Assembly (NCBI GenBank): GCA_016927685.1
Contig: JAFGMD010000024.1
Location: forward strand, 7,314 to 71,313
Direction of reading: 5' to 3'
From: Candidatus Falkowbacteria bacterium
Lineage (GTDB): Bacteria > Patescibacteriota > Patescibacteriia > CAIXNZ01
DNA length: 64,000 nucleotides
How positions within the stretch are numbered: the first letter of the stretch is position 1; the number at the start of each line of letters is the position of its first letter. Shown piece by piece: positions 10,675 through 59,148 of the stretch. A program made the translations under genes and the position numbers. A model generated the notes under the pieces. The model saw nothing but the letters and a program-made list of their open reading frames with translations, was not told the DNA's origin and searched no databases.

Positions 10675-10871
10675 TTAGTGCGGGGTCAGTGACCGACCCC
10701 AAATTTTTAAAGCAGTGACCCCGCACCAATGCTTCGCATTGTGCGGGGCGCAGCGCGCTCTAACCCGCCTCGACGAGCTGACTCGTCTCAGCTCGCTTGG
10801 GCGAAGCACAGCGAGGGGGACATCTGCCTGCCCGCCGAAGCACAAAGTGCATAGGCGGGAGCTATACACCC
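10675..10871 (-). ncRNA. GC-rich highly structured spacer between the 16S 3' end and tRNA-Ile, starting with a tRNA-Ala-like 5' fragment (GGGTGTATAGCTC)
   Basis: ~60% GC versus a ~30% background. It has multiple 6-14-bp inverted repeats (cccgcc/ggcggg; gagctga/tcagctc; ccccgcac/gtgcgggg; ggggtc/gacccc; and gtgcggggtcactg twice in inverted orientation, which allows alternative foldings). No ORF with an RBS. Confidence 0.45.
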
Positions 10872-10974
10872 AAAAACCATATCAATAAGAGCATTATAAC
10901 AAAAAAAATCGGCTTAATCAAGATCTAATTGATATTAAATAAGCCGATTTTTTTTAAATTGCATCTTCAACCGC

Positions 10975-10992
10975 TAAAAAGTGATAGAATCA
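10975..10992 (-). promoter_or_regulatory. 16S rRNA trailer half of the leader/trailer processing stem (probable RNase III site)
   Basis: ctaaaaagtgatagaatc is the exact reverse complement of gattctatcactttttag at 12617-12634 in the 16S leader. Confidence 0.7.
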
Positions 10993-11065
10993 AAATCCAA
11001 AAATTTGTTTCGTTAGAAACAACCGACCGAATAGAGCGGACTTTCGTCGCGCTCATATACTCCTT

Positions 11066-12559
<1,494 letters not shown>

Positions 12560-12616
12560 AAATAAAATGGTGATAAGGTTCACCATAACAACCTTCCCCA
12601 GTTGGGGAAATAAGGA

Positions 12617-12634
12617 ATTGATTCTATCACTTTT
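12617..12634 (-). promoter_or_regulatory. 16S rRNA leader half of the processing stem
   Basis: Perfect 18-nt complement to 10975-10992. Confidence 0.7.
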
Positions 12635-12822
12635 TAGTTGTCAAAGAAGAAAAAACAGGGAAATCCATTGTCTCCAAAATTATACCTGAGTATTTTTTAG
12701 AGATCGAATTTCTCTGTTTTTTCTCCTCCCCATCGGAGCTGTTGCAAAGATGGGATATCTTTGAAAAATTAAATTTTTATTGTCTTTTTTGAGAACTTAG
12801 TAAAGTTATTTTTGATACTAGC

Positions 12823-12851
12823 ATTATAAACTTTATTATTTAAGCTGTCAA
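12823..12851 (-). promoter_or_regulatory. Consensus sigma70 rRNA promoter (TTGACA-17-TATAAT)
   Basis: Minus-strand TTGACA (12846-12851), 17-nt spacer, TATAAT (12823-12828), ~260 nt upstream of the mature 16S 5' end. Confidence 0.7.
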
Positions 12852-12894
12852 GAGGATTGACCTGTTATCTATATACAGCTTTTACACAATAAAC

Positions 12895-22288: not shown

Positions 22289-22741
22289 ATGTATGACATC
22301 TTAATAATATTGGCTAAGTTGCTTTTAGCCATTATATTGGGCGCAATAATCGGTTACGAGCGAGAATCCATAGGGAAGCCGGCTGGATCTAGAACATATG
22401 CCCTAATCGCTCTTGGCTCTGCTTTATTTACTATTCTTTCAGTAGATGGATTTGGCAAATTGCCCAATGGCAATCCCACCTCTATGATGGGCCAAATATT
22501 AATTGGTATAGGTTTTATTGGCGCTGGCTTGATTGTTTATCATAAGCATCATGTTGAGGGCCTAACTACTGCCTCTGCTCTCTGGTCAATCGCTGCTATT
22601 GGTATTGCCGTTGGCTTGGGCTGGTATGTTGTCGCTATTATTGCCTCCTTGTTGGTTTTCCTTCTTTTATTTATTGTTAGAAGGGTAGAATTTGAAAAAA
22701 ATAAAAAGAAAACACTATGGTCTTTATTCGACAAGAAATAA
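22289..22741 (+). CDS. MgtC/SapB family membrane protein
   Basis: N-terminal GAIIGYERE and LIALGSALFT motifs typical of the MgtC family; four TM helices. Confidence 0.6.
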   Translation: MYDILIILAKLLLAIILGAIIGYERESIGKPAGSRTYALIALGSALFTILSVDGFGKLPNGNPTSMMGQILIGIGFIGAGLIVYHKHHVEGLTTASALWSIAAIGIAVGLGWYVVAIIASLLVFLLLFIVRRVEFEKNKKKTLWSLFDKK

Positions 22742-23505
22742 TTGATAAAATAAAAAAATTAACAAGGAACGCCGGGCAAATTTTGCTCAAAAATTTTAAT
22801 TTGCCAAAACAAAATCATGCCAAATTTAAAAGTAAGCATGAGATCTTGACCACTGCCGACTTGATTGCTGAAAAAATAATTATTAATAAGCTAAAAAAAC
22901 TTACTCCTAATTTTCGCATTCTCTCTGAGGAATCTGGCGATAATAAAAAGAAAAGCGATTTTCTATGGACCGTTGATCCCTTAGACGGCACAACCAACTA
23001 TTACATGGGCAATCCGCTTTTTGCTGTGCAAATAGCTTTAGTTTATAAAAATGAACCCATTTTGGCATTTATTTACTCTCCTTATATCAAGGAGTTTTAT
23101 TTTGCCCAAAAAAATAAAGGGGCTTTCTTAAATGGCAAAAAAATTCATGTTTCAAATAAAAAATTTAAAACCGCTCTTTTAACATTTTGCCATGGTTCAA
23201 CAAAATCAGATGTGCTTAGGGCTATTAAAATTTATGAGCATTTTAAATTAGCCAGTTTTGACATTAGACAAATCGGTTCGGCTGCTTTAGAATTCGCCTG
23301 GGTAGCCAAGGGACGCACTGAATGCTATATTTCGCCTGGCCATCGGCTTTGGGATATTGTGCCAGGCGCATTAATTGTGCGTGAAGCCGGCGGCAGAATT
23401 TATGATTTTAAAGGAAATAGCTGGAATCTAGTAAAATCAAAAGCTATTTTTGCTTCAAACGGCATTATTGATAATAAAGTTTTAAATTTTTTGAAAAAAC
23501 TATAA
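22717..23505 (+). CDS. Inositol monophosphatase family protein
   Basis: WTVDPLDGTTNY metal-binding motif plus the C-terminal WD..A pattern. Confidence 0.8.
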   Translation: MVFIRQEIIDKIKKLTRNAGQILLKNFNLPKQNHAKFKSKHEILTTADLIAEKIIINKLKKLTPNFRILSEESGDNKKKSDFLWTVDPLDGTTNYYMGNPLFAVQIALVYKNEPILAFIYSPYIKEFYFAQKNKGAFLNGKKIHVSNKKFKTALLTFCHGSTKSDVLRAIKIYEHFKLASFDIRQIGSAALEFAWVAKGRTECYISPGHRLWDIVPGALIVREAGGRIYDFKGNSWNLVKSKAIFASNGIIDNKVLNFLKKL

Positions 23506-42189: not shown

Positions 42190-42615
42190 TTAGGGCGTTG
42201 TTCCGCCTTGTTCAATTCCATTGCCGCCAGGAGCAAAAATTCCGCCCTGTGAAGAGTTTATAATTACATAAAAGACAAAATTAGTAATAGCATAAGCAGA
42301 AATTATAATAACTAAGCCGATTATTGCGTAATAAATTATGTTTTTCCCTTTTTTCACCGCATCTTCCTTCCCTTGGGCTGTCATATATATAAAGCCGCCA
42401 TATATTATTAAAATAACAGCAGCAATCCCCAAAATGGTCAGGGCAGTTCTTATTAAAACAGCAGCAATTTGCTGCGGCGAAGTATAACTGCCGCCATATA
42501 CCTGTTGGCCAAAGCTATTTACATTTTCGCTGATACTAAAAGCGCCTGCTAGATTTGGCAATAAACAAAGAGAAATTAATATTAAGTAAAATAATTTGTA
42601 TAAATTTTTGTTCAT
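42190..42615 (-). CDS. Pilin-like two-helix membrane protein, paralog 1 (VirB2/TrbC-like topology)
   Basis: Signal/TM, then conserved core ILGIAAVILIIYGGFIYMTAQGKEDAVKKGKNIIYYAIIGLVIIISAYAITNF, then a Gly-rich tail. Confidence 0.6.
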   Translation of the reverse strand: MNKNLYKLFYLILISLCLLPNLAGAFSISENVNSFGQQVYGGSYTSPQQIAAVLIRTALTILGIAAVILIIYGGFIYMTAQGKEDAVKKGKNIIYYAIIGLVIIISAYAITNFVFYVIINSSQGGIFAPGGNGIEQGGTTP

Positions 42616-42636
42616 AAAAATTATTATTATAAACTA

Positions 42637-43197
42637 TTATATTGGCGGGTTTTCTGGGGCAGTCGGCGTTTGCGGCTGGTCTATTGTGTGCGTACAACCA
42701 CAGCCCGTTGCACAGCATGATTGGCTGCAACATTCTAGCTCCCCCTGATTGCGATAACTGCAGCAATAACAAGAAAAGTAATCTCTATCTTCTGGATTTT
42801 CGCATCTTTCTGTAAAAGGAGGAGGAGTAGCGCCTGGTTGCTCTAAATTTTTGGCAACAAAATAAGTAATAGAATAACCTGAAATAATAATTACCAGGCC
42901 AACTACAGCCGTAGTGATTGTTTTTTTACCGCTACTAACCTTTTTTTCATCACCCTGTGAAGTTAAATATAAATATCCTCCGTATATTAATAATATTGTA
43001 AAGATAATGCCAATGAGGGTAAAGGCCACTTTAATGATGCTTGCTGCGTATTGTTGCGGCGTTGTGGTTTCCCCATAGCCAACTTGAGTAGCAGTGCTAG
43101 TAAGCCCTTGCAGGAATTTTGAGGCCTGAATTTCTTGGCAGGACAATAAAATTCCTAAACTAATAACGATTATTAAAATGATAATTTTTTTGTTCAT
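42637..43197 (-). CDS. Pilin-like paralog 2 with an extremely Cys-rich C-terminal tail
   Basis: Core LIGIIFTILLIYGGYLYLTSQGDEKKVSSGKKTITTAVVGLVIIISGYSITYF, and tail CENPEDRDYFSCYCCSYRNQGELECCSQSCCATGCGCTHT (14 Cys in ~40 aa). Confidence 0.6.
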   Translation of the reverse strand: MNKKIIILIIVISLGILLSCQEIQASKFLQGLTSTATQVGYGETTTPQQYAASIIKVAFTLIGIIFTILLIYGGYLYLTSQGDEKKVSSGKKTITTAVVGLVIIISGYSITYFVAKNLEQPGATPPPFTERCENPEDRDYFSCYCCSYRNQGELECCSQSCCATGCGCTHTIDQPQTPTAPENPPI

Positions 43198-43601
43198 ATT
43201 TGTACTTCTATTGACGGCTCAGTTGTTTCTTGTGGTTCAAGGAGGGAAGCCACAAAATACGAAATTGAATAAGCAGTTACAATGATGGCCAAGCCAATTA
43301 TTGCGCTAATTATTATTTTTTTCGCCTTATTGACATTTTCCTCATTTCCTCTGGCTGTCATCCAGACATAGCCTCCATAAATAACTAGAATAAAAAATAC
43401 TACTCCAACTAGGCCTAAAATTGCTTGTATGATCCTGACTACAATTTCAGTCCACCCTATGCCAGTTTCTAAGCCTGCTTCGCCGGCTGATGTATTAATA
43501 TATTGACCTGAATTTTGAATATTCAAGGCCAGGCAGGGGAGCGCTGACATGCCAAGGAGAACTATTAGTAAAAATATTATAAAAGTAATTTTTTTTCGCA
43601 T
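43194..43601 (-). CDS. Pilin-like paralog 3
   Basis: Core ILGLVGVVFFILVIYGGYVWMTARGNEENVNKAKKIIISAIIGLAIIVTAYSISYF; 4-nt overlap with paralog 2. Confidence 0.6.
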   Translation of the reverse strand: MRKKITFIIFLLIVLLGMSALPCLALNIQNSGQYINTSAGEAGLETGIGWTEIVVRIIQAILGLVGVVFFILVIYGGYVWMTARGNEENVNKAKKIIISAIIGLAIIVTAYSISYFVASLLEPQETTEPSIEVQI

Positions 43602-43609
43602 AGTAATGA

Positions 43610-44026
43610 TTAAATTTGATAAATTTGGTCCGAGTCCTGTTCTGGCGTTTCCGGTTCAATGGCCGAGGAAATAAAATATGTTATTGAATAAGCCGCTGCC
43701 ACTATTAATAAGCCTATTACAGCGTAAATAATAATTTTTTTAGCTTTTTGAACTTTTTCTGTAGTCCCTGCCGCAGTCATATATAAAAAACCTCCATAGA
43801 TAATTAATACTACAAACATGGCACCAACAAGACCCAAAAATAAGTTAATTACCATCGCTACTACTTCGGCAAACTCCGCTTTTTGCAAACCTGTTTCGGT
43901 TTGTGTCTGCTGGGTAAATTCATTAATATTTTGCAAGCTATAGGCATTGAGCAGAGAAGCAGAAAATAAAAAAATACCAAACAGAATGGTTGTTAAAAGA
44001 AAAAATTTTAAATATTTACTAGGCAT
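43610..44026 (-). CDS. Pilin-like paralog 4
   Basis: Core FLGLVGAMFVVLIIYGGFLYMTAAGTTEKVQKAKKIIIYAVIGLLIVAAAYSITYF. Confidence 0.6.
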   Translation of the reverse strand: MPSKYLKFFLLTTILFGIFLFSASLLNAYSLQNINEFTQQTQTETGLQKAEFAEVVAMVINLFLGLVGAMFVVLIIYGGFLYMTAAGTTEKVQKAKKIIIYAVIGLLIVAAAYSITYFISSAIEPETPEQDSDQIYQI

Positions 44027-44039
44027 GTTTAAGATTTAT

Positions 44040-44414
44040 TTATTGCCCGCCAACTGCCTGAAAAATAAGTGCTGTTATGGCATATGCGGCCCCCAGAACA
44101 ATAGCGCCGATAATTGACCACTTAATTACCTCCTTGCCCTTATCGACTTTTTTAGAATCACCAGCCGCACTCATTATTAAAATTCCGCCGTATACCATTA
44201 AAAATAAGAAAAGCGAACCAGCAATGGCCAAGGCAGCGCCGGCAATGCGGCCCAGAAATACTGGTGCATCAATCATAAGGCTTTCGCCTAGCCCTGCCTC
44301 TTTAGCCGTGGTTGATAAACCATGATCTCCTTGAGCAGAAACAGTATTAGCGCCATAAATAGAAAATAATAAAATAAAAATTTTTGTAATACTTGTTATA
44401 TATTTTTTAATCAT
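44040..44414 (-). CDS. Pilin-like paralog 5 (C-terminus ends GGQ)
   Basis: Core LAIAGSLFLFLMVYGGILIMSAAGDSKKVDKGKEVIKWSIIGAIVLGAAYAITAL. Confidence 0.6.
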   Translation of the reverse strand: MIKKYITSITKIFILLFSIYGANTVSAQGDHGLSTTAKEAGLGESLMIDAPVFLGRIAGAALAIAGSLFLFLMVYGGILIMSAAGDSKKVDKGKEVIKWSIIGAIVLGAAYAITALIFQAVGGQ

Positions 44415-44426
44415 ATTGACTATTAA

Positions 44427-44460
44427 ATATTAAGGGCAGACGATTGCCTGCCCTTAATAT
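44427..44460 (-). terminator. Strong hairpin between paralogs 6 and 5 (possible internal terminator/attenuator)
   Basis: 13-bp perfect inverted repeat atattaagggcag / ctgcccttaatat with an 8-nt loop; the downstream U-run is weak (aauauuu). Confidence 0.4.
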
Positions 44461-44467
44461 TCCTTAA

Positions 44468-44842
44468 TTACTGTTGAGATGTCGCATTAATAATATTGGT
44501 CAAAACGAAATTGGCAATGGCATATGCCGATAAGATAATCACAAGACCTATTACGCCCTGAAAGATAAGCTTCTTTGCAGTTTTTACGTTTTCTTCATTA
44601 CCCATGGCAGTCATCCATTTAAAGCCGCCTACTAATATGATAACCACGGCAACTACGCCTAAAAGGCCCATGGCCACATTAATTATTGTGGCAATAGTTG
44701 TTCTGATGTCGCCTGTGGGTAAACCGGTTGAAGTAACATAGCTTAAGCCCACATCTAAAGTTGTTTGCGCTGCGACTAATTCTGGCAAAAGAATTAGGGC
44801 TAAAAGTCCTAATATCATGCCAATTTTCATCCCTTTTTTCAT
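44468..44842 (-). CDS. Pilin-like paralog 6
   Basis: Core AMGLLGVVAVVIILVGGFKWMTAMGNEENVKTAKKLIFQGVIGLVIILSAYAIANF. Confidence 0.6.
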   Translation of the reverse strand: MKKGMKIGMILGLLALILLPELVAAQTTLDVGLSYVTSTGLPTGDIRTTIATIINVAMGLLGVVAVVIILVGGFKWMTAMGNEENVKTAKKLIFQGVIGLVIILSAYAIANFVLTNIINATSQQ

Positions 44843-45000
44843 AATTGGATCCTTCTTAGCTTAGTTAATTCACTAAGCAATAAGATTAATTATTTAAATA
44901 TATTTATCCGTTTAAAAGCGGTTTTTAAAAAAACATTATCTTTATAATATTATACTATTTTAGCTTTCAAACCGCAATATTTAAATATTTTTTATTATAT

Positions 45001-45372
45001 TTATGTGCCACTCTGTGTAATACCCGTTATAATATAATTTACAAAAATATAGCTGCCAAATATTATTAAAAGTCCGATTACAGACCAAATTAGTATGTCT
45101 TTGCCCTTTTTAACCATATCTGGGTTGCCATGGGAAGTCAGCATAAACATGCCGCCATAGATAAACATAATAAAGGCAATTGAGCCAACTATAGCCAAAA
45201 CAGCTTTTATGATTCGCCCTATTAATTTTTGCACTCCGGCCTCTCCCGGCTCAAGCTTAATAGGCGAAATATCACTAATACTTACTTGACCTAATGCGGG
45301 AATATAATTAAGAAATATTCCTATAGTGGCCAATAATATTGTTATTAAGATAAGAAATCTAATTTTTTTCAT
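45001..45372 (-). CDS. Pilin-like paralog 7
   Basis: Core VLAIVGSIAFIMFIYGGMFMLTSHGNPDMVKKGKDILIWSVIGLLIIFGSYIFVNY. Confidence 0.6.
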   Translation of the reverse strand: MKKIRFLILITILLATIGIFLNYIPALGQVSISDISPIKLEPGEAGVQKLIGRIIKAVLAIVGSIAFIMFIYGGMFMLTSHGNPDMVKKGKDILIWSVIGLLIIFGSYIFVNYIITGITQSGT

Positions 45373-45388
45373 AAAAATTTATATTAAT

Positions 45389-45853
45389 TTATTTACATTC
45401 TCCGGTTTGGACGTCACATTTTTTGCCCGCTGGGCAATTAGCATCGCTTTTACACGGGCAGATGAGCTTTGATTCAATCCATTGCTGGGGGTCTGAAATT
45501 TCACCGCCTGAAACAACAACCAATATAAAGGCAATAATAAAATATGCCAAAAAAATAATGGCCATCCCAATTAAGGCATTAATTATTATATCTTTACCCT
45601 TTTTAACTTGATTTGGGTTACCACCAGAAATCAGCATTGTAAAACCGCCATAAATAAAATATAGCAGCAACAAACTTCCAACTATAGCTAAAATGAATTT
45701 GCCAATATTTATCGCCACATTGACCATATCACAAAGTGTGCAATCTCCAGTCGCAGTGCAAGGTGGTAAGATTTGGGCATTTGCGCATTTTATTCCAAAA
45801 AACAATATAAAAATTATTACGAATAAGCTGAGGATGTATTTTTTGTTTAACAT
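45389..45853 (-). CDS. Pilin-like paralog 8 with Cys-rich N- and C-terminal exposed segments
   Basis: Core ILAIVGSLLLLYFIYGGFTMLISGGNPNQVKKGKDIIINALIGMAIIFLAYFIIAF; N-terminal CTATGDCTLCD and C-terminal CPCKSDANCPAGKKCDVQTGECK. Confidence 0.6.
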   Translation of the reverse strand: MLNKKYILSLFVIIFILFFGIKCANAQILPPCTATGDCTLCDMVNVAINIGKFILAIVGSLLLLYFIYGGFTMLISGGNPNQVKKGKDIIINALIGMAIIFLAYFIIAFILVVVSGGEISDPQQWIESKLICPCKSDANCPAGKKCDVQTGECK

Positions 45854-50614: not shown

Positions 50615-52069
50615 TTATAATGAATTATCAATTGAGGGTAATTCTGGTCTTGCTTTAGTTCGCAAAATTTCCTGGACGAATTCTCTTGAAAACCCCTTGA
50701 ATAAATATATAAATATTAAATATATAATACTAGCTAAGATAATTTGTAAAATTACATTAAGATTAGCCAAAAAATACAAGCCTAAACACATAAATGCTGA
50801 AGCTAGAATTGTTTTAGGAATAATGGCTAAATTTGGCCAAAATTTAATAGTTTTTACAGTAACAATTAGGTTAAAAATAAGAATCATTGCTTCAGAAATT
50901 ACTGTAAATACCGCAGCGCCATAATAGCCATATTTTGGTATGGTAATTAAATATCCAATCAGGGAAATTAGCGCAACAAAAACATATGCCCACACCATCT
51001 TTCTTTGTTTGTCTAAAGTTACAATAGTATAGCCAAAGAGCGAATTTATAAAAATAATGCCCGTGGCTACAATAATTATTTTTAAGACATCGCCTGAAGC
51101 TGAAAATTCAGACCCAGCAATTAAAAGCATTAATTTTTTAGCAACAAAAAGCGTGCCAAAAACCATTGGTAAGCTAATTATAAGTAAAATATCAAATGTT
51201 TTTTGAAAAATATCTTTAAAACGATCATAATTTTTTTCTATCCAAGCTGCGGTTAAAATAGGGAAAATAATTCCCACAAATAAATAGATAAAGTTTACTA
51301 AAATTTCCAAGACACGATATGGCGCATTATATATTCCAACCTCTGCCTGAGATCTTGTTAAAGATAAAATCAAAGTATCGGCTTTAAAGTAAACTAAATT
51401 TAGAGCAATAGATAGGGCTAGTGGCCAAGTGATATAAAATATTTTTTTCCAAATCTGCCAATCAAAGGCAAATTTTATTTTTACAAATTTTAAAGCAAAA
51501 AGATAATTCAAAATAAAATTTGTCAAACTGCCCAATACAACTGCCCAGACAATAGCTATCAAACCTTTGTCAGCAAAAGCAAAATAAGCGACTAAAAATA
51601 AAAGTATTAATCGTCCCGCAACTTCTGAAATAGCCACGCCATTTAATTTTAATTCTTTTTGAAATAAACTAATTAGAATTTGATTAAGCGAGGAAATAAA
51701 AAATGATAAAGAAGCAATGGCAATGCCAAACTTTACTATATTGCTATAAGGGAAAAAAATAACAACAAGTGGCGCCAGTCCTAAAAAAATTAAAGCGCTA
51801 AAAAATCTGAAAGTAAAAATATTATTCATGGCTCTCCCTTTTTCCAATGAGGGATCAGAAATCAATTTTATTACAGTCAGAGATAATCCCATGTCTACTA
51901 AAATGGCAAACAGCTGAAGATAGGCCATAATAGTAGAATATTGTCCAAAGCCTATTTGACCAAGATAACGAGTCATTATGGCAATGGTCAGCACGCCAAT
52001 TAGCGTACCCAAAATTTTGCCGATAAATTGGATTATTGTATTGTAGGCAATTTTTCTTGTTAGTGACAT
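50615..52069 (-). CDS. Oligosaccharide/polysaccharide flippase (Wzx/MOP-superfamily polysaccharide biosynthesis protein)
   Basis: 14 TM helices; N-terminal KIAYNTIIQFIGKILGTLIGVLTIAIMTRYLGQIGFGQYS typical of Wzx/PST-family proteins. Confidence 0.75.
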   Translation of the reverse strand: MSLTRKIAYNTIIQFIGKILGTLIGVLTIAIMTRYLGQIGFGQYSTIMAYLQLFAILVDMGLSLTVIKLISDPSLEKGRAMNNIFTFRFFSALIFLGLAPLVVIFFPYSNIVKFGIAIASLSFFISSLNQILISLFQKELKLNGVAISEVAGRLILLFLVAYFAFADKGLIAIVWAVVLGSLTNFILNYLFALKFVKIKFAFDWQIWKKIFYITWPLALSIALNLVYFKADTLILSLTRSQAEVGIYNAPYRVLEILVNFIYLFVGIIFPILTAAWIEKNYDRFKDIFQKTFDILLIISLPMVFGTLFVAKKLMLLIAGSEFSASGDVLKIIIVATGIIFINSLFGYTIVTLDKQRKMVWAYVFVALISLIGYLITIPKYGYYGAAVFTVISEAMILIFNLIVTVKTIKFWPNLAIIPKTILASAFMCLGLYFLANLNVILQIILASIIYLIFIYLFKGFSREFVQEILRTKARPELPSIDNSL

Positions 52070-52280
52070 ATATTTAATTTAATGATACTAAAAAAGTCAA
52101 TTATCGTCTAGGTTTTGTGCTATTTTTCAGTAACAAAAATTTTAAAGCATTGAGCAATTTTTACTTGAAAATACTGGGATTTTGATGAACACAAAAATTA
52201 TACAAAGAGTCCAAATTCATTGACCCAAAATGAAAAAAATGCTATAATAGATATATAAAATAAAAATAAAAACAAATATT

Positions 52281-54089
52281 ATGAAAGCCACTTATAACAC
52301 ATATTTCGGCTGGAAATATTGCAAGCAAAAAGAATTAGCTATGAGCAGAAAAAAGTCATATTGGGATTTTTTTCTAAGTATTGTCATAGCTTTTTTTATT
52401 ATATTATTAATTTCTCATCTTTTAGCCAAACTAGATTCAATAATTAAGCTGACATCAATTAATCCGTTTGGGATTAGTATAGCCAATGCGGCCTCTAGCC
52501 ATTCTATTAGTGATGGCGATTTAATAAAATGCTCCGGCTCAACTGCTGTCTATCTAGTTAAAGATAACAACAGATATTCATTTCCATTCAAAAAGGTATA
52601 TGAAGCTTATTATGGCAATGATTTTTCAAAAGTTAAAACAGTATCGCTAGCGACTTTATCAAGTTTATCTTTGAAGGGCAATGTTAAGCTGCCCGAAAAT
52701 ACTTTAGTAAAGATTGCCACAGATCCTAAAGTTTATAAAGTTGTTAGCATAAACAATTCAAAATATTTGGAGTGGATAAAAACAGAAGCAGAGGCAAAAT
52801 CGCAATTTGGTTCTAATTGGGCAAAAAGTATTATTGATATTCCAGATGTATTTTTTGTTGATTATCAGACAGTAACAGTGCAAGCCAGCCAGCCAATCAA
52901 CACTTCTAAGCCAGCAGGTTTGATAGAAATTTGCATGAGCATTAAACCAAGTGAACAAATAACACCGGCACAAAAAATGCTTTTAGAGCAATGCGAAAAA
53001 ATGGGCGCTAAAGTTACGGACGAGGGAGTGGCTTTTGTAAATGAACCAATGATTCCGCAATCAGTCACATATAATAATGAGCCAATAGAACAAGATACAA
53101 CACCGACAAATTCTGGCAATAATTCCAATTCAGATTCCAATAATTCTTCAAATACCTCGCCAACGCCAACTAATAATAATTCTACAAATCCCGAAAGCAA
53201 TACTATTAATCCGGCTTATGGGCCCTTAATTCGTGTAGGATTATTTTCATCTACCGAAACTCAAACTATAAAAGCAAATACCAGCTTTAAGATTAAAGAT
53301 GCTAATGGGGCTGTGTTAGCTTCAGTGCCTTTAAACGCTTTAGCAACTGCCAGTTTTAATTTTACTAATAAAACATATTCTTTCGCAGCCAATGGTACAA
53401 GCATATCAACAAGTTCATATTTACGCTTTGTAGGAGATTCAAATAATACAGTTTTTGAAATAGTTAATTTAGAATGGAGACCAGCCTGGAACACAAGCTT
53501 AAATGATAATAAGTTTTTGGGCGTTTTAGAATTAAGATACAGCCCAACTACTAATAAGCTTTGGATGATTAATGAACTGCAATTAGAATATTATTTAAAG
53601 GGTTTGGCCGAAACCTCCAACAGTTCCCCGATGGAATATCAGAAAGCTTTGATTACTGCCGCCAGAACATATGCCATGTATCATTATAATCGCGGAACAA
53701 AGCATGCGGCTGAATATTATACTTTGGATGCAACATATGACCAGGTTTATAAAGGTTATAATTCGCAATTGCGTTTGCCTAAAGTTTCCGAAGCAGTAGA
53801 GGCAACAAAAGGCCAAGTTGTAACATATCAAGGCAATGTTGTTGTTACGCCTTATTTCTCGCATTCTGATGGTTATACCAGAAACTATGAAGATGTTTGG
53901 GGAGGCAAAATAGTGCCTTGGTGCCGTTCTGTAAAAGAACCTAATGGCTATACTAAAACTACTTTATATGGGCATGGCGTTGGCTTGTCAGCTTATGGTG
54001 CGATTCTTTTGGCTAACGATTATAATTATAATTTTGAACAGATATTAAAGTATTATTATACTGGCATAGAACTTAAAAAAATATATTAA
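52281..54089 (+). CDS. SpoIID/LytB-domain protein (peptidoglycan-lytic/amidase-enhancer family) with an N-terminal TM and a low-complexity Asn/Ser/Thr linker
   Basis: C-terminal ...EYQKALITAARTYAMYHY... matches the conserved SpoIID block; real start may be the internal Met (MSRKK, ~52341). Confidence 0.65.
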   Translation: MKATYNTYFGWKYCKQKELAMSRKKSYWDFFLSIVIAFFIILLISHLLAKLDSIIKLTSINPFGISIANAASSHSISDGDLIKCSGSTAVYLVKDNNRYSFPFKKVYEAYYGNDFSKVKTVSLATLSSLSLKGNVKLPENTLVKIATDPKVYKVVSINNSKYLEWIKTEAEAKSQFGSNWAKSIIDIPDVFFVDYQTVTVQASQPINTSKPAGLIEICMSIKPSEQITPAQKMLLEQCEKMGAKVTDEGVAFVNEPMIPQSVTYNNEPIEQDTTPTNSGNNSNSDSNNSSNTSPTPTNNNSTNPESNTINPAYGPLIRVGLFSSTETQTIKANTSFKIKDANGAVLASVPLNALATASFNFTNKTYSFAANGTSISTSSYLRFVGDSNNTVFEIVNLEWRPAWNTSLNDNKFLGVLELRYSPTTNKLWMINELQLEYYLKGLAETSNSSPMEYQKALITAARTYAMYHYNRGTKHAAEYYTLDATYDQVYKGYNSQLRLPKVSEAVEATKGQVVTYQGNVVVTPYFSHSDGYTRNYEDVWGGKIVPWCRSVKEPNGYTKTTLYGHGVGLSAYGAILLANDYNYNFEQILKYYYTGIELKKIY

Positions 54090-54100
54090 ATTTTTGAAAC

Positions 54101-54133
54101 AAAAAAGCTCCCCGTGCTAAGGGGAGCTTTTTT
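54101..54133. terminator. Bidirectional intrinsic terminator
   Basis: aaaaaagctcccc gtgctaa ggggagctttttt. Confidence 0.8.
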
Positions 54134-54136
54134 ATG

Positions 54137-54715
54137 TTATTCCATTGAATTTTGTGGTCTTATTTTTTCCATAAGTTCATGCTCTTCATTTTTTTGAAAT
54201 TTTTTAATTTCCTCATTGATTATCCTTACGACATTAAAGGGATCATTCACTTGCCTAAAAATAAAACGCTGAATTTCACCAGCAGTTTGCACATGGACAT
54301 CGCCGTAAGAAAAAAGAGTTTGCCAAAATCCTTTTTGAATTGCCGTGACATCTTGGATGCGTTCTAGGGTATGCTCGGCGATTTCTCTGTTAAATAGTCC
54401 TCGTTGTTCAATATTTATTATCCTGTGGTCAGTTACAATCCAGACGTCAAGATAATAATCAATAAAAGCATTTAAAAAGAATAGCAGGGTAAAAAGATAG
54501 TAAAGACTAGACAGCAAGAATAAAAATGCATAATAAATATTATTATCTAATACCTCTGGTTCAAAATAAGAAAGAAAAAGATAAAGTGCCAGGGGAACAA
54601 AAGCAATAACTATAATAACTAGCCACTTGATAATTAAAATTATCCAGTGCCTCCTTAAAAATAATACCAATTTTTCATCCTTTTCCCTATTAGGGATATG
54701 TTTTTCTATATACAT
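54137..54715 (-). CDS. Membrane protein with a bacterial PH-like domain (DUF304/bPH_2, YdbS/YdbT-like)
   Basis: Two N-terminal TM helices followed by a ~100-aa domain; family guess based on architecture and moderate motif similarity. Confidence 0.5.
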   Translation of the reverse strand: MYIEKHIPNREKDEKLVLFLRRHWIILIIKWLVIIVIAFVPLALYLFLSYFEPEVLDNNIYYAFLFLLSSLYYLFTLLFFLNAFIDYYLDVWIVTDHRIINIEQRGLFNREIAEHTLERIQDVTAIQKGFWQTLFSYGDVHVQTAGEIQRFIFRQVNDPFNVVRIINEEIKKFQKNEEHELMEKIRPQNSME

Positions 54716-54719
54716 AAAT

Positions 54720-54944
54720 TTAAATGACTAATGTGGCACTCCAGTCAATTAGTTGGCCGTAGGTATAGGTAATAAAAAGTAATAGAATTGTTATGGCTAA
54801 AAATAAGAAAGTAACAAAAAAACTGGAAAAACTTAAAAAGCCGTAAGCAAAAAGATGATAAAGGTTAAAAATGGCGAAAACGATAAATATACCCACGCCA
54901 AGACCGTAAATAATTAATAAGGTGTATAAAGATATTTCTATCAT
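54720..54944 (-). CDS. Small two-TM membrane protein (hypothetical)
   Basis: 74 aa, hydrophobic throughout; co-directional with and immediately downstream of ruvB. Confidence 0.4.
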   Translation of the reverse strand: MIEISLYTLLIIYGLGVGIFIVFAIFNLYHLFAYGFLSFSSFFVTFLFLAITILLLFITYTYGQLIDWSATLVI

Positions 54945-54950
54945 ATATAT

Positions 54951-55988
54951 TTATAATAAACTATTTTGCTCTTTATCCAAAATTGGTTTAAAGCCCAGAT
55001 GTTCAAATGCTAGTTTGGTCGCGGTTCTGCCCCGAGGAGTTCGATGTAAAAATCCCAATTGCATTAAAAACGGTTCATAAATATCTTCTAATGTATCCAT
55101 TTCTTCGTTAGTTGCCGCTGCTAAAGTGTTTAAGCCGACTGGGCCTCCGGAAAATTTTTCAATAATTGTTTTTAATATCTTGCGATCAACTTCATCAAGG
55201 CCTAATTCATCGATTTCTAATAGTTTTAAGGCATTTAATGCTAAATTTTCTGTAATTTTCCCATCAGCTTTAACTTGGGCAAAATCGCGTACGCGTTTGA
55301 GTAGACGATTAGCCACGCGCGGGGTTCTGCGTGCTCGCTCAGCAACTAAAGAGCTGGCCATTGCTTCAATTTCAATCCTTAATATCTTAGCAGAGCGGTC
55401 AATTATTTTTTGTATATCTTCGTCTTCGTAAAAATCTAGTTTATACTGGGCGCCAAAACGGTCGCGTAAAGGAGCAGAAATTAAACTGACTCTGGTTGTG
55501 GCGCCGATTAAGGTAAATTTAGGAAGATCTAATCTTAAAGTTCTGGCACTGGGCCCTTTGCCAATTATTATATCAAGCGAATAGTCTTCCATGGCAGGGT
55601 AGAGTATCTCTTCAATGGTTTTATTTAAACGATGGATTTCATCAATAAATAAGATATCGCCTTTTTCCAAATTAGTTAAAATAGCAGCCAGGTCACCGGT
55701 TTTTTCAATAGCTGGTCCAGAAGTGATCCTAATATTCGAGCCCATTTCATTGGCAATAATATGAGCTAATGTTGTTTTACCTAAACCAGGACAGCCATGA
55801 ATTAAAACATGCTCAATGGGCTCACCGCGCTTTTTAGCGGCCTGCAAAAAAATATTAAGGTTGTCCTTGACCTTATTTTGCCCGATGTATTCATTTAACT
55901 TTTTGGGGCGCAGATTCTTTTCAAAAGCGACTTCTTCAGCGCTTTCTTTAGAGGAGACTATGCGGTTTTTATCTTGTTTTTTGGACAT
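54951..55988 (-). CDS. ruvB: Holliday junction branch-migration helicase RuvB
   Basis: Walker [20 protein letters not shown], Walker [11 protein letters not shown], sensor 2 and a winged-helix C-terminus. Confidence 0.9.
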
Positions 55989-55990
55989 AA

Positions 55991-56050
55991 TTAGCGTTAT
56001 AGAATTATAGCGTTATAGAATTATAGTACTATAATGCTATAAATCTATAA
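55991..56050 (-). promoter_or_regulatory. Palindrome-containing element upstream of ruvB (same as at 2950-3005)
   Basis: TTATAGTACTATAA at 56021-56034 flanked by repeated AGCGTTATAGAATTATAG units. No SD before the ruvB ATG. Confidence 0.5.
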
Positions 56051-56151
56051 TCTAAAATCTATTTCAATCTTAGCTTTTTTGAGCTAAAAAGACAAGGCAA
56101 ATAAAAAACCCATAGACATAGATCTATGGGTTCACACTAGATTATCGACAT

Positions 56152-56358
56152 TCAATCGGAAAGGGCAAGCAAGATCTTGCGCCGCAGATAAGGATCGCTG
56201 CTGTTATTCATTGCATCAACAAGTTGCTGTAGTATTTGGCCTTCTTTTGCAGCTTCATTGATTTTCTGTCTTTCAGTTTTTTCAATAAGCGATGCGCCGG
56301 CTTCACTGTTTAAGTCACCACCCTTAGCAACAAATTCGACGATAGGGTTATTTGACAT
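56152..56358 (-). CDS. Hypothetical small soluble protein (68 aa), GC-richer than the flanks
   Basis: Strong RBS gaaaggaggaaag; GNRA-type terminators on both sides. Confidence 0.5.
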   Translation of the reverse strand: MSNNPIVEFVAKGGDLNSEAGASLIEKTERQKINEAAKEGQILQQLVDAMNNSSDPYLRRKILLALSD

Positions 56359-56419
56359 CTTTCCTCCTTTCTCAAGATTTATAATTGTAGCTTAATAATA
56401 AAAGTTTGTCAAGAATTTT

Positions 56420-56455
56420 AATACAAAAAGGCCCTCTTGCGAGAGCCCTTAATCG
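56420..56455 (-). terminator. Intrinsic terminator with GCAA tetraloop (near-duplicate of 58990-59030)
   Basis: Minus-strand RNA ggcucucGCAAgagggcc + UUUUUGUAUU. Confidence 0.6.
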
Positions 56456-56470
56456 TATAAGATAGACTTA

Positions 56471-56665
56471 TCATTTTAAAAAATCTAGTAAATAGCATAG
56501 CACTAGAGCAAATGATAATGTCGCAAGAAATAACATTATAATGAGAATGTCTAAGCCAGGTAGATCTTCGAGTATGGCCTTAAAGATTTCATTTGCGGTG
56601 AAAAGGAGTAAACATAAAATAATTGAAAGCACTATAATAGCCACTACTATTGTTGTCATATACAT
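56471..56665 (-). CDS. Small two-TM membrane peptide (64 aa)
   Basis: RBS aaaggagg; upstream leader carries AAATCGGTTTGTAA (56708-56722). Confidence 0.5.
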   Translation of the reverse strand: MYMTTIVVAIIVLSIILCLLLFTANEIFKAILEDLPGLDILIIMLFLATLSFALVLCYLLDFLK

Positions 56666-56724
56666 TCTTTCCTCCTTTGGCTGTTTTGCGCCTATTCAAT
56701 AATCAAAGTTACAAACCGATTTTT

Positions 56725-57018
56725 TTATTTAGGGCAAAGTAATTTTTTCAGCCCTTGCCGCCAGTTATTTTCTGTTTTAAACTCTCGTTTTTTTAATTCT
56801 ATGGTTGGTATCCCAAATTCTTCTATACATCTTGGATCTCTCACGCTTTTCCAATGATGACGGTCGTCTAGGTAAAGTGTCTTTCCATAAAGTCCGCATG
56901 TAATTCGTCTTCCCCCTAAAAGATCCTCGCGGCAACGAAAATTACATGCGCTAGAGCAATAATGAGGATTAGAATCATCAACATTAATTACCAAGGAAAT
57001 GCTCTCGGTGATATTCAT
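56725..57018 (-). CDS. Cys-rich small protein (97 aa; C-x3-C-x3-C plus three further Cys)
   Basis: Start overlaps the stop of the upstream 57-aa peptide (ATGA), and RBS aggagg sits inside the upstream ORF, implying translational coupling. Confidence 0.5.
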   Translation of the reverse strand: MNITESISLVINVDDSNPHYCSSACNFRCREDLLGGRRITCGLYGKTLYLDDRHHWKSVRDPRCIEEFGIPTIELKKREFKTENNWRQGLKKLLCPK

Positions 57019-57188
57019 TTTTTCCTCCGTATCAGGTAAAGAAATGTTTCTGTGATCGCAAACCCCAGCACAATCGGCAGAGCATTTGGAATAAGGGAAT
57101 AGTGCTGGAATAGCCAGGCGTAAGTGGCAATAAAGAAAAAAGCAATCAATGAGCTAAGGGTACAAAAAAAATCAGGTAACTCTTTCAT
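57015..57188 (-). CDS. Small two-TM membrane peptide (57 aa; missed by the >=60-aa ORF track)
   Basis: Translation MKELPDFFCTLSSLIAFFFIATYAWLFQHYSLIPNALPIVLGFAITETFLYLIRRKK; purine-rich RBS gggaaaggggagggaaag. Confidence 0.45.
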   Translation of the reverse strand: MKELPDFFCTLSSLIAFFFIATYAWLFQHYSLIPNALPIVLGFAITETFLYLIRRKK

Positions 57189-57229
57189 CTTTCCCTCCCC
57201 TTTCCCTCTCTTCGCTCACCGAAGCTCCA

Positions 57230-57340
57230 AAGGAGCGAAGGCGGGCTTGTTTTAAGTTGTCAAATTACAAACCGATTTTCATACAGCGACACTTTGTCGC
57301 GACCTGGAGAAAGGGGGCGACTCGAAGTCGCCCGAATTTG
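57230..57340 (-). promoter_or_regulatory. Leader/promoter unit A: terminator, conserved AAATCGGTTTGTAA motif, TTGACA, structured 5'UTR
   Basis: Terminator gggcgacucgaagucgccc (57305-57323), motif at 57265-57279, TTGACA at 57258-57263, 5'UTR hairpin cttcgctc...gagcgaag. Homologous to unit B at 57640-57760. Confidence 0.45.
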
Positions 57341-57413
57341 TTTTGAATTTTTTATTTAAATTATTCCATCCCTTCTTTTTCGATTTCAGTCATCCTTCAG
57401 CGCTTTGTGCCGT

Positions 57414-57620
57414 TCAGTGTGTCAGAATAAAGAACCCTAAAAAGCTACATGCCAAAACAAACATTACGCATAGGACTAAAGTTGGCAATTGTAGGGCAAA
57501 TCCAATAGCGGCAAAAGGATTATTTTTATCCTTTTCCATTTGCACGATGCCTATTATGGAAGTGGCAATAAAAACGCTTGCCATTAAAAACAAGGCAATA
57601 GCGCCAAAAATATTTTGCAT
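57414..57620 (-). CDS. Small two-TM membrane peptide (68 aa)
   Basis: RBS gaaggaggag; preferred over the overlapping plus-strand ORF 57343..57675, which lacks an RBS. Confidence 0.5.
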   Translation of the reverse strand: MQNIFGAIALFLMASVFIATSIIGIVQMEKDKNNPFAAIGFALQLPTLVLCVMFVLACSFLGFFILTH

Positions 57621-57639
57621 GATTTTTTTCTCCTCCTTC

Positions 57640-57760
57640 TACCTAGCGGCGTTTAAGTTGTTAAAGTACCCGTAAAAATATAACCAATTTCCAGCCTGCG
57701 GCACCATGTCACGGCCTGGAAAAAGGGGGCGACTCCATTCAAATGAAATCGCCCATAATT
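57640..57760 (-). promoter_or_regulatory. Leader/promoter unit B (paralogous to unit A)
   Basis: Terminator gggcgauuucauuugaauggagucgccc (57727-57754) + CCUUUUUUCC; shared blocks ccagg.cg.gaca, gaaa(a)t(c/t)ggtt and ttt(g/a)acaacttaaa(a)c. Confidence 0.45.
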
Positions 57761-57770
57761 ATTTTTGTAC

Positions 57771-58019
57771 TTAGATCATTTTGTCTCTCCTTTTCTGTGT
57801 CCATTCATCCAAAAGATCAAAAAATAATTTTGCCATTTGTCCAAAACAAAAGAGATCAATAATTGGCCAGCCAAACTGTCCCACGGTTATGGTCGTTGCG
57901 TTTTTTATAATTACGAATGCTTGCCAAAAACCAAAGCTGAGAAAAATAATAGCCGTAGTCCCGGAAAAAAACATGCCAAACATCAAAAAGATGATAATAC
58001 GAGTTCTTCTGACGTTCAT
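57771..58019 (-). CDS. Small two-TM membrane peptide with amphipathic C-terminus (82 aa)
   Basis: RBS aaaaggaggaataaa; consensus promoter TTGACT-17-TATAAT ~60 nt upstream (plus coordinates ~58085-58120). Confidence 0.55.
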   Translation of the reverse strand: MNVRRTRIIIFLMFGMFFSGTTAIIFLSFGFWQAFVIIKNATTITVGQFGWPIIDLFCFGQMAKLFFDLLDEWTQKRRDKMI

Positions 58020-58175
58020 TTTATTCCTCCTTTTATTTTTTCTATTTTGTTTAAGAACCCATCCCGCACATTTTGCAAGATTTTATATTATAACAACAAA
58101 ATTAATTTTAGTCAATACTATCCGTCTAGCTTATATATTATTACTGCTGATACTATCGCAAAAATAGCTAATTCT

Positions 58176-58210
58176 ATTGACAAATTCTGTAAATATGCTA
58201 TACTGTATTT
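58176..58210 (+). promoter_or_regulatory. Sigma70 promoter (TTGACA-16-TATACT) for the TrmB-like regulator gene
   Basis: ctattgacaaattctgtaaatatgctatactg, ~25 nt upstream of ATG 58232. Confidence 0.5.
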
Positions 58211-58231
58211 AGTAGTCGGAAAATTACGAAT

Positions 58232-58978
58232 ATGACCATAAAAGAATCATTGGAACAAATAGATATTACAGGCAAAAAGGCAGATATTTATCTAGCCTGC
58301 TTGGAAATGGGGGGCGCCACTGCCTATGCCATAGCCAAAAAAGTGAGCCAAAAAAGGCCCACTGTTTATGATATTTTAAACCAGCTTTTGAACGAAGGTT
58401 TAGTTTACAAATCGCTCAAGCGAGGCAAGATGTATTTTTTCCCAAGCGATCCAGCTCGGCTTTTAAAGAAAGCTAAAGAGCGCCAGGAAAACATTGAAGC
58501 GATTTTGCCTGAATTACAAAATCTATATAATGCTCCCAGATTTAAACCTACTATCAGGTATTTTGAGGGTAAAGAGGGTATTAAACAGATGTATGATGAT
58601 AGTTTAAAAAGTTTGAGAAAAGGCGATGAGATTTTAGGTTTTGTGGGCGAAGGTATTTTACAATATTTACCAAAATATGCTGATGAATATATTACCGAAA
58701 GAATTACTAAGGGAATAAGATTTCGTGGCATTTATAAAAAAGAGCTAGGAATTATGGAGTATATGGAGAAAAATGTTGAACAGCTTCGCGAAGTTCGCCT
58801 TTTGAATCCTAAGGATTTTCCAGTTAATAATGAGACAAATATTTATGGCAATAAAGTTGCTTTTGCCAGCTATGGCAAGGAAATGTTTGGTATTATCATA
58901 GAATCAGAAGAAATCAGTAAGTCGCAAAAAGCAATTTTTGAGCTGGCATGGAAAGGTGCAGAAAATTTGGAAAAATAA
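58232..58978 (+). CDS. TrmB-family transcriptional regulator (N-terminal winged HTH)
   Basis: N-terminal ...ADIYLACLEMGGATAYAIAKKVSQKRPTVYDILNQLLNEGLV... is an HTH_TrmB-like pattern; 248 aa with a C-terminal effector-binding-like domain. Confidence 0.65.
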   Translation: MTIKESLEQIDITGKKADIYLACLEMGGATAYAIAKKVSQKRPTVYDILNQLLNEGLVYKSLKRGKMYFFPSDPARLLKKAKERQENIEAILPELQNLYNAPRFKPTIRYFEGKEGIKQMYDDSLKSLRKGDEILGFVGEGILQYLPKYADEYITERITKGIRFRGIYKKELGIMEYMEKNVEQLREVRLLNPKDFPVNNETNIYGNKVAFASYGKEMFGIIIESEEISKSQKAIFELAWKGAENLEK

Positions 58979-58989
58979 AATTTATATAA

Positions 58990-59030
58990 ATACAAAAAGG
59001 CTCCCTTACGAGAGCCCTTTTGCTTTTTGA
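58990..59030. terminator. Bidirectional intrinsic terminator with GNRA tetraloop (near-duplicate of 56420-56455)
   Basis: ggcucccuuacgagagcc (plus) or ggcucucGUAAgggagcc + UUUUUGUAUU (minus). Confidence 0.6.
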
Positions 59031-59059
59031 AATAAAGAACGCTACTCCGATTTTACGGA

Positions 59060-59148
59060 TGGTGCCGAAGGCGGGACTCGAACCCGCACGGAGGATTAAC
59101 TCCAAAGGATTTTAAGTCCTTCGTGTATACCAATTTCACCACTTCGGC
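59060..59148 (-). tRNA. tRNA-Leu(TAA): tRNA-Leu (anticodon UAA), long variable arm, CCA encoded
   Basis: Revcomp reads GCCGAAGTGGTGAAATTGGTATACACGAAGGACTTAAAATCCTTTGGAGTTAATCCTCCGTGCGGGTTCGAGTCCCGCCTTCGGCACCA. Confidence 0.85.

Follow-up and report, generated by a model that had tools for sequence, protein, structure and literature searches.

In ribosomal RNA (rRNA) operons (rrn), BoxA sites lie upstream of both the 16S and the 23S genes, and in the gamma-proteobacterial BoxA consensus, GYTCTTTAANA, C4 and T6 are critical (PMC5725501). Beyond rRNA, suhB, a ParE-like toxin gene and CRISPR arrays have BoxA sites, which block Rho or repress translation via an RNA loop (PMC5725501, PMC7665894). 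Divergent BoxA sites were called by Stringer et al. by comparison with the genome's own rRNA leader (PMC7665894). Here we describe element E, a repeated RNA-like element with a BoxA-like box (box B), in a 64-kb stretch of DNA, called the window, from a chromosomal contig of an uncultured Candidatus Falkowbacteria bacterium (Parcubacteria), a member of the candidate phyla radiation (CPR, or Patescibacteria). CPR bacteria have tiny genomes and few recognised regulators, and we know of almost no cis-regulatory RNAs described for them. Element E is conserved, folded and intergenic, and it is previously undescribed, as a literature search found no description of it and no Rfam family matched (only chance-level matches at E<=10 over 56000-58300, and matches at gathering score only to rRNA and tRNA genes).

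The sequence-only reading of this DNA had pointed to a cluster of six very small minus-strand genes with two homologous leaders, and this observation stands. The leaders, which are copies E1 and E2 of the element (Table 1), are 80% identical over 54 nucleotides (nt; 57270-57323 and 57682-57735), with a further 18 nt at 89%. A third, partial copy that had been suspected is also real, since this short form is identical at 21 of 21 positions to two stretches in another genome (L133, 2667-2687 and 3247-3267). Short forms consist of AAAAUCGGUU and box B only, and the second one in L133 overlaps the stop codon of a gene of 184 amino acids (aa). The sequence AAATCGGTTTGTAA occurs exactly twice in the 64 kb (56709 and 57265), both times within the cluster, and neither blastn nor the covariance model with its filters off found further copies of the element in the window. 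The cluster is one co-oriented unit with a common, non-random leader motif, beside a divergent gene for a TrmB-type regulator, as had been proposed.

Read on the gene strand, the parts of element E come in the order P0, 45-nt hairpin, AAAAUYGGUU, insert, box B, an optional small hairpin, Shine-Dalgarno sequence and start codon. P0, a GC-rich hairpin, occurs in at least three sequence types that are unrelated, and in most copies CC-U5-CC comes next. The 45-nt hairpin is made of P1 (CC/GG), P2 (UUUCCAG/CUGAAAA) and P3 (8 bp of variable sequence, mostly with 3-nt loops), and its 5' strand includes the U tract that follows P0. The spacer from AAAAUYGGUU to box B measures 0, 12 or 70 nt. Box B itself is single-stranded and reads CUUUGACAACUUAAAA, or also (G/U)(U/A)ACUUU(G/A)AC/AAACUUAAAA or (G/U)(U/A)ACUUU(G/A)ACAACUUAAAA, and it lies 22-77 nt ahead of the start codon. 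At the place where E2 has an additional GC-rich hairpin region, other copies have a small GGCGCAAAGCGCC-type hairpin. An intrinsic terminator has a GC-rich hairpin with a U-rich tract within 0-2 nt of it on the transcribed strand, and a U tract follows P0 in each of the 13 alpha-type copies for which P0 is available; CC-U5-CC is exact in 11 of these, E2 having CC-UUUCU-CC and L131_3 GC-U5-CC. A beta variant (L002 and copy 1 of L133) exchanges UUUUUCCAG/CUGAAAAU for CAACUCGAG/CUGGAGAUUG in P2, so that the helix is retained and the U tract is lost. Termination is therefore not universal to element E.

In total we found 18 copies at eight Parcubacteria loci, usually two to four per 1-2 kb, and such arrays are present in the window, L007, L128, L129, L131 and L133. 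The covariance model gave 13 strong matches (29-90 bits) in six loci; with the weaker matches in L133 (20.5 bits) and L002 (16 bits), the loci number eight. A strict pattern scan of metagenome contigs had recovered copies in L128, L129, L131 and L133, and the covariance model added further ones in L131, L128, L133 and, weakly, L002. L007 has two leader copies, one ahead of a gene for a 251-aa lipoprotein-like protein and one ahead of a homolog of p97cys, one of the six small genes of the window. A loose pattern scan of genome contigs returned more than 120 matches, mostly due to chance and in unrelated phyla; only that in L025, a metagenome-assembled genome of the Zambryskiibacteriota, was genuine. 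No copies were found in viral contigs. The 1.8-kb metagenome contig L131 (1-1836) holds four copies, one of them cut by the contig end, which separate open reading frames (ORFs) of 129, 80, 106 and 101 aa, and all four have the box B variant GAACTTTAAAT.

The strand of the element is that of the flanking ORFs in 18 of 18 copies, and in 16 of 18 a Shine-Dalgarno sequence and a start codon follow closely. Elsewhere the element precedes unrelated, larger proteins (the 251-aa lipoprotein-like protein and others of 123, 141 and 184 aa). As the same leader stands before unrelated proteins, it belongs generally to the intergenic gaps of variable arrays and is not specific to toxins or bacteriocins. 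The fold is conserved. Over 13 sequences, 91% of the pair cells are paired, compared to 31-47% when the partners are slid. Compensatory changes on both sides were seen at 9 of the 21 modelled pairs, P0 pairs counted; none of 500 shuffles matched the observed values. The minimum-free-energy folds of single sequences share the two-hairpin architecture in 13 of 15 copies. In P3 the pairing is kept and the sequence is not (GTGACA/TGTCGC, CATCTC/GAGGTG and GATAC/GTATC).

A lead to a function is the match of box B to the rRNA leader of the same genome. The 16S leader of the window has a site (in fuller form CTTCTTTGACAACTAAAAAG, 12646-12628) that is nearly identical to box B and lies at the 5' edge of the leader/trailer processing stem, which is the classical position of an rrn BoxA. 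When the whole window (128 kb of sequence) was searched for CTTTGACAACTWAAAA with up to two mismatches, only E1, E2 and this 16S leader site were found, and the pattern CTTT[AG]A[AC]AA[CT]T added exactly one site, in the spacer between the 16S and tRNA-Ile genes. The 11-mer CTTTGACAACT is common to the boxes of L129 and L133 and the 16S leader of the window, and E2 shares a 10-mer. A BoxA-like box also lies in the 5' untranslated region (5'UTR) of the first array gene, at the same aligned position in three genomes (the window, L002 and L133), about +22 to +32 from the predicted start of a consensus promoter; the rrn box lies at about +27. Against GYTCTTTAANA, which is a gamma-proteobacterial consensus, E1 (GTACTTTAACA) scores 10 of 11 and L025 (GTTCTTTAAAA) 11 of 11; L002 has a second box, adjoining the Shine-Dalgarno sequence, that also scores 11 of 11. 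C4 and T5-T7 are kept in all boxed copies except E2 (ATTT, with A at position 4) and copy 1 of L133 (A at position 7). The E. coli rrn leader sequence TGCTCTTTAACAATTTA (TGCTCTTTAACAATTTATCA) was confirmed upstream of the 16S gene, in about seven copies per genome. Judged against the rRNA leader of its own genome, box B has the sequence of a putative BoxA.

The 16S operon of the window (12573-12852 and 10702-11067) has a perfect TTGACA-17-TATAAT promoter (about 12822-12850) and a second TATAAT box (12679-12684). Its long leader/trailer processing stem has a duplex energy of -62.6 kcal/mol. Inside the window the 16S gene is followed by four tRNA genes only and not by a 23S gene, and a gene for a 23S rRNA-intervening-sequence protein (PF05635; 13578-13949) lies close to it.

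We tentatively favour the reading that element E is an RNA-level intercistronic control module with a BoxA-like site for Nus factors, which would organise a hypervariable operon of small membrane proteins. With the same reserve, the region as a whole can be regarded as an operon of hypervariable content that encodes small membrane proteins and secreted ones. The series p82, E1, p68tm, E2, p57/p97cys, short form and p64 would be one transcription unit that begins with the conserved sigma-70 promoter (58087-58115) and ends with the strong terminator (56427-56450), and p68sol would stand apart. Box B would be a lineage-specific BoxA, the loading site for NusB and NusE (S10), with one site per 5'UTR. 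At the internal gaps, P0 may act as a partial terminator or as a stabiliser of 3' ends, and the 45-nt hairpin may capture the U tract by pairing after the tract has been transcribed. A polymerase that has left the promoter or survived P0 would then be re-loaded with the Nus complex at every intergenic gap. Such a complex could provide processivity past the P0 hairpins and past short, weakly translated, Rho-sensitive ORFs, or it could tune the translation of the next ORF by RNA looping, as at E. coli suhB.

Several points weigh against this reading. The box is downstream of its own P0, and therefore it would act only on later terminators; moreover, rrn-type Nus complexes are known chiefly for countering Rho and not intrinsic terminators. 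Neither nusB nor rho was seen in the window, where the only related gene is one for an inositol monophosphatase of the SuhB family (22717-23505, on family-level evidence); SuhB counts as the fifth Nus factor in E. coli. It may also be that a box of this kind, AU-rich and ahead of a Shine-Dalgarno sequence, is a plain translational enhancer. BoxA positions 1-3 (GYT) are lost in most copies (TAA, GTA or GAA), the commonest form of the box scores only 7-8 of 11 against the gamma-proteobacterial consensus because it has an extra base, and copy L128b has no box at all. The comparison with an rRNA leader covers one genome, that of the window. Finally, the wobble pairs are ambiguous as to which strand is the RNA, with 10 G-U pairs on the sense strand compared with 8 A-C and a conserved C-A, which would become G-U on the antisense strand. 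A more far-reaching version, in which a nut-like Parcubacteria module of terminator hairpin, 45-nt hairpin and BoxA stands between every gene and gates shuffled surface and membrane genes through the Nus machinery, its folded sites perhaps serving as cassette breakpoints, seems to us unlikely.

The explanation that survives best next to the Nus-factor reading is a module for processing, stability and translation that would work without Nus factors. P0 would guard the 3' end of the upstream message and the 45-nt hairpin the 5' end of the downstream one after endonuclease cleavage, and the box would be a standby site or enhancer. The leader of T7 gene 10 likewise combines a hairpin with UUAACUUUA, known as epsilon. 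Nearly all copies do have two stable adjacent hairpins, after which come AU-rich sequence without structure and a strong Shine-Dalgarno sequence. The short forms retain only the box and the Shine-Dalgarno sequence, and in L129a, L129b and the short form of the window the homology reaches up to the Shine-Dalgarno sequence. However, the complementarity of box B to the 16S rRNA of this genome was no better than that of shuffled controls, and an epsilon-like pairing of the core with 16S rRNA was rejected on the same comparison. This explanation also leaves unaccounted for that elsewhere in the 64 kb the box is matched only in the rRNA leader and spacer. We consider it possible, and on balance doubtful.

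A role at the DNA level has to be weighed because the genes around the element are so variable. The window also holds one 16S rRNA gene, six tRNA genes and housekeeping genes, and a Logan contig from SRR13394437 is 100% identical to its positions 51725-59088. The neighbours of the cluster are TrmB, tRNA-Leu, SpoU and RuvB: a tRNA-Leu gene (59060-59148, minus strand) and the divergent TrmB-like gene on one flank, and ruvB (54951-55988, minus strand) on the other. Compared with L002 and L133, conservation spans the TrmB-like gene and the array promoter down to about 58068 and resumes from 55991, at the start codon of ruvB. Between these flanks the array genes are wholly different among the window, L002 (143, 67, 73 and 76 aa), L133 (216, 141 and 184 aa, and more) and L007 (251 aa, then the p97cys homolog). 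Judged by its gene content, the locus is a plasticity zone. The terminator hairpins at 58984-59019 and 56415-56450 form a 36-nt direct repeat of 86% identity that encloses the TrmB-like gene and the array. One relative has the order SpoU, GIY-YIG, p68sol, a 162-aa gene and RuvB, with the TrmB-like gene and the array absent at this place. The bracketing repeats together with this relative suggest an insertion or deletion between the repeats.

Just upstream of ruvB, 55992-56060 contains a perfect 16-nt tandem repeat (TAGCGTTATAGAATTA x2), as well as a palindrome of 24 nt whose arms are 56004-56027 and 56028-56051; as the homology to relatives begins at the ruvB ATG, this stretch is lineage-specific. 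The first 20 nt of the tRNA-Leu(UAA) gene (59129-59148) are identical at 15 of 20 positions to the 3' strand of the E1 hairpin (57683-57702; GCCGAAGTGGTGAAATTGGT and GCCGCAGGCTGGAAATTGGT). The common AAAUUGGU is D-loop sequence. The match is probably due to chance, and a tRNA-like origin of the element was rejected.

Element E could accordingly be imagined as an attC-like cassette boundary or recombination site, or as a small mobile repeat, that shuffles genes beside tRNA-Leu, and owing to the bracketing 36-nt repeat such a cassette role survives as a minority reading. The complete difference in array content between kept flanks, the different array positions of the p97cys gene in the window and L007, the GIY-YIG gene in the relative that lacks TrmB and the array, and the ambiguous wobble-pair strand test, which is expected of DNA hairpins, all fit. 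On the other side, the copies read have no RYYYAAC/GTTRRRY core sites on either strand and form two local hairpins instead of one long imperfect palindrome, features in which they differ from integron attC sites. A scan of 30 proteins of the window revealed no recombinase. The strict orientation with respect to the genes, the short distance to the Shine-Dalgarno sequence, the homology that enters the 5'UTR, which is unexpected past a crossover point, and the box without hairpins in the promoter-proximal 5'UTR speak against it as well. We regard a DNA-level site as improbable.

Still less credit can be given to the idea that the core serves an alternative sigma factor as its promoter or, as the sequence-only reading had raised, is bound by the TrmB-like protein as an operator. 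That a TrmB-family regulator is encoded next to the cluster was correctly predicted, as residues 7-74 match the PF01978 helix-turn-helix (HTH) domain with E=3.2e-12, and its gene has its own consensus-like promoter (TTGACA-16-TATACT), as predicted. Archaeal TrmB has an additional C-terminal sugar-binding domain; none was detected in this protein, which scores far under the NCBIfam TrmB cut-offs (profile lengths 338-349 compared with 248 aa), and therefore it is TrmB-like by its HTH domain only. A first search of genome contigs for related loci gave nothing. A total of 475 homologs were found, the protein is 60-81% identical to homologs in hundreds of Parcubacteria, and by tblastn it is 81% identical to that of L133 and 79% identical to that of L002. 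A homolog of 66% identity in L136 (2912-4776) and L137 (192-2056), from another Parcubacteria lineage, is transcribed divergently from genes for a 199-aa protein, a radical SAM/SPASM protein and a 64-aa protein; this layout resembles that of ribosomally synthesised and post-translationally modified peptides, and element E is absent there.

In the window, L133 and L002 the element has a TrmB-like gene as its neighbour, P3 is palindromic as DNA, and the genes preceded by element E have no sigma-70 promoter, the only consensus-like promoters being those of the TrmB-like gene, p82 and p68sol. The TTGACA in the leaders has no -10 box at usable spacing, and transcription would start within or after the Shine-Dalgarno sequence; being too near to that sequence, it is not a sigma-70 -35 box. 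The spacing and the position rule out a sigma-70 promoter or one of the extracytoplasmic function type in the core. The variable spacer (0, 12 or 70 nt) and the gene-1 box, which is inside the transcribed 5'UTR of a canonical promoter, oppose a promoter too, and the short forms directly after or overlapping stop codons place the core inside polycistronic RNA. As to an operator, the motif is absent from the conserved promoter region between TrmB and the array, only the pairing of P3 is kept and not its sequence, and the L025 element has no TrmB gene within 4 kb. A general link of the element to TrmB-like genes was rejected, because six loci with a 60-68% identical TrmB-like protein lack the element. 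A promoter or operator thus appears quite improbable.

The six minus-strand ORFs (82, 68, 57, 97, 64 and 68 aa) were found where they had been claimed, each with a strong ribosome-binding site (GGAGG or AGGAGG, 5-12 nt upstream); GGAGG is scarce in the window, with 67 sites over both strands, 23 of which have an ATG after them. The ATGA overlap between the p57 stop and the p97cys start was confirmed. The prediction of two-helix peptides held for p68tm and p64; in p82 and p57 only the N-terminal segment was flagged (Kyte-Doolittle, threshold 1.6), and their second helix is our own reading of the sequence. Public records call five of the six ORFs, p64 in Logan only and p57 nowhere, and all called ORFs are singletons at 90% clustering. 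The peptides matched no family in Pfam, NCBIfam, PHROGs or PADLOC, they are not paralogous in an all-against-all blastp, and tblastn against all fetched loci found homologs only for p97cys. The homolog in L007 (1161-1457, 59-60% identity) lies just upstream of ruvB on a syntenic metagenome contig, and others are P0127 (72 aa, 38% identity) and the fragment P0130. C21, C25, C29, C41 and C64 of p97cys are invariant among its three homologs. An exhaustive HMMER search gave two genuine small homologs of p97cys and otherwise spurious repeat proteins, such as a eukaryotic sushi-repeat protein; a word-indexed search gave none for p97cys and one for p68sol. The latter, P0131, is 88% identical and precedes ruvB in the relative without TrmB gene or array at this site. 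An AlphaFold2 model of p97cys from three sequences was unusable (pLDDT, the predicted local distance difference test, of 41.8). Codon usage gave modest support for the frames of p97cys and p68sol only, and the hydrophobic ORFs were inseparable from overlapping plus-strand ORFs. All six look real; for the four hydrophobic peptides, of which no homologs were found, coding is supported by their ribosome-binding sites, close packing and place in the array. Hairpins resembling terminators lie after p82, p64 and p68sol.

It had been suggested that these peptides are type I toxins, bacteriocin/immunity pairs or holins; the leaders would then encode antisense RNAs or peptide-specific regulation. Even though four of the six products are small and hydrophobic and both leaders in the window could fold on the plus strand with a T-rich stretch, this is very improbable, because no family matches, the peptides are not paralogous, the element also precedes unrelated proteins of 123-251 aa, the antisense T-rich tail is not kept in other genomes, and no processing, export, transporter, peptidase, lysin or antisense-promoter partner was seen, so that the cluster has the features of neither a type I toxin-antitoxin system nor a bacteriocin/immunity or holin module. 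An antisense small RNA was rejected separately: the G-U pairs of the two copies in the window spoke for the plus strand, and the other genomes keep neither a U tail nor a promoter for an antisense RNA.

Table 1. Features of the small-gene cluster and of the rRNA operon discussed in the text (window positions)
Feature	Position	Strand	Description
TrmB-like gene	58232-58978	plus	248 aa; NCBI JW977_03610; PF01978 46.6 bits (cut-off 25.6)
TrmB-like promoter-like site	58177-58204	plus	TTGACA-16-TATACT, TG-extended; region kept in L133 and L002
Array promoter	58087-58115	minus	TTGACT-17-TATAAT, TG-extended; kept across genomes though gene 1 differs
Gene-1 BoxA-like box	58042-58060	minus	GGGTTCTTAAACAAAATAG; in p82 5'UTR; same variant as L133 copy 1; pattern match at 58057
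p82	57771-58019	minus	82 aa, hydrophobic; array gene 1; singleton at 90% clustering
Element copy E1	57648-57759	minus	covariance model 78.7 bits; P0 called terminator-like by scan; fold
E1, P0	57727-57754	minus	followed by CC-U5-CC
E1, 45-nt hairpin	57682-57726	minus	followed by 12-nt insert
E1, box B	57651-57670	minus	GGTACTTTAACAACTTAAAC
p68tm	57414-57620	minus	68 aa, hydrophobic, two helices
Element copy E2	57245-57338	minus	covariance model 76.7 bits
E2, P0	57315-57333	minus	followed by CC-UUUCU-CC
E2, core	57270-57314	minus	P2 degenerate, P3 intact
E2, box B	57250-57265	minus	ATTTGACAACTTAAAA
Extra GC-rich hairpin region	57196-57245	minus	between E2 box B and p57 Shine-Dalgarno sequence; fold
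p57	57015-57188	minus	57 aa, hydrophobic; not called in public records
p97cys	56725-57018	minus	97 aa, soluble, 6 Cys
Short form of element E	56703-56723	minus	AAAATCGGTTTGTAACTTTGA; without P0-P3 hairpins; one base past p97cys stop
p64	56471-56665	minus	64 aa, hydrophobic, two helices; final array gene
Array-ending strong terminator	56415-56450 (model: 56427-56450)	minus	86% direct repeat of tRNA-Leu/TrmB terminator 58984-59019
p68sol promoter	56384-56412	minus	TTGACA-17-TACAAT; unit 56152-56412
p68sol	56152-56358	minus	68 aa, soluble; separate unit with own promoter
16S leader BoxA-like site	12637-12646	minus	CTTTGACAAC; 71 nt before 16S 5' end; about 27 nt past TATAAT box
16S-tRNA-Ile spacer BoxA-like site	10702-10712	minus	CTTTAAAAATT; pattern match

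Elsewhere in the window, at 42190-45853, eight co-oriented ORFs of 123-186 aa form a run whose upstream-end member matches a pilin family of the type IV secretion system (PF18895), and this run may be a paralogous pilin-like cluster.

Small orphan membrane proteins of CPR bacteria are suspected to act in attachment to host cells. An intergenic RNA module, supported by covariation, that organises such genes would be among the first lineage-specific regulatory elements for the CPR radiation. If the box is a true BoxA, the reach of Nus-factor control, so far rRNA, suhB and CRISPR arrays, would come to include accessory operons of protein-coding genes in a distant phylum. The covariance model is a sequence handle with which variable arrays can be found in metagenomes. 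On present evidence, annotating the peptides as toxins, bacteriocins or holins is unwarranted.

Among known systems, element E resembles the rrn BoxA and the lambda nut sites in its single-stranded box with a CUUU(A/G)ACAA core on the sense strand and in the hairpin before it, which is the BoxB-BoxA order of rrn leaders. Its box matches that of its own 16S leader and recurs internally, as BoxA does in rrn spacers. Unlike an rrn BoxA, it fronts protein-coding genes, is repeated in every gap of an array, is fused to a preceding terminator-like hairpin and does not keep positions 1-3 of the consensus. The BoxA sites of suhB, the ParE-like toxin gene and the CRISPR leaders likewise lie at most about 50 nt upstream of a start codon, or they head a repetitive array (PMC5725501, PMC7665894), and they too are recognised by their likeness to the rRNA BoxA of the organism. 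Those sites occur once per transcription unit and without conserved hairpins, whereas here there are several per operon, each within a structured module of 90-110 nt, in a CPR bacterium. Integron cassette arrays (attC sites, and the clusters of attC sites lacking integrases, CALINs) share the co-oriented, mostly promoterless and unrelated small ORFs, the repeated folded site of variable length and the content that differs between relatives. Element E differs from them in lacking both inverse core sites and a long single hairpin with extrahelical bases. Its conservation also enters the 5'UTR, and no integrase was seen. With stabiliser hairpins and AU-rich enhancers such as that of T7 gene 10, it has in common the hairpins, the AU-rich box (GUAACUUUGA, compared with UUAACUUUA) and the strong Shine-Dalgarno sequence. 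In contrast to these, its sequence is kept across genera, its box is nearly identical to that of the rRNA leader, and a terminator-like U tract is placed inside its second helix.

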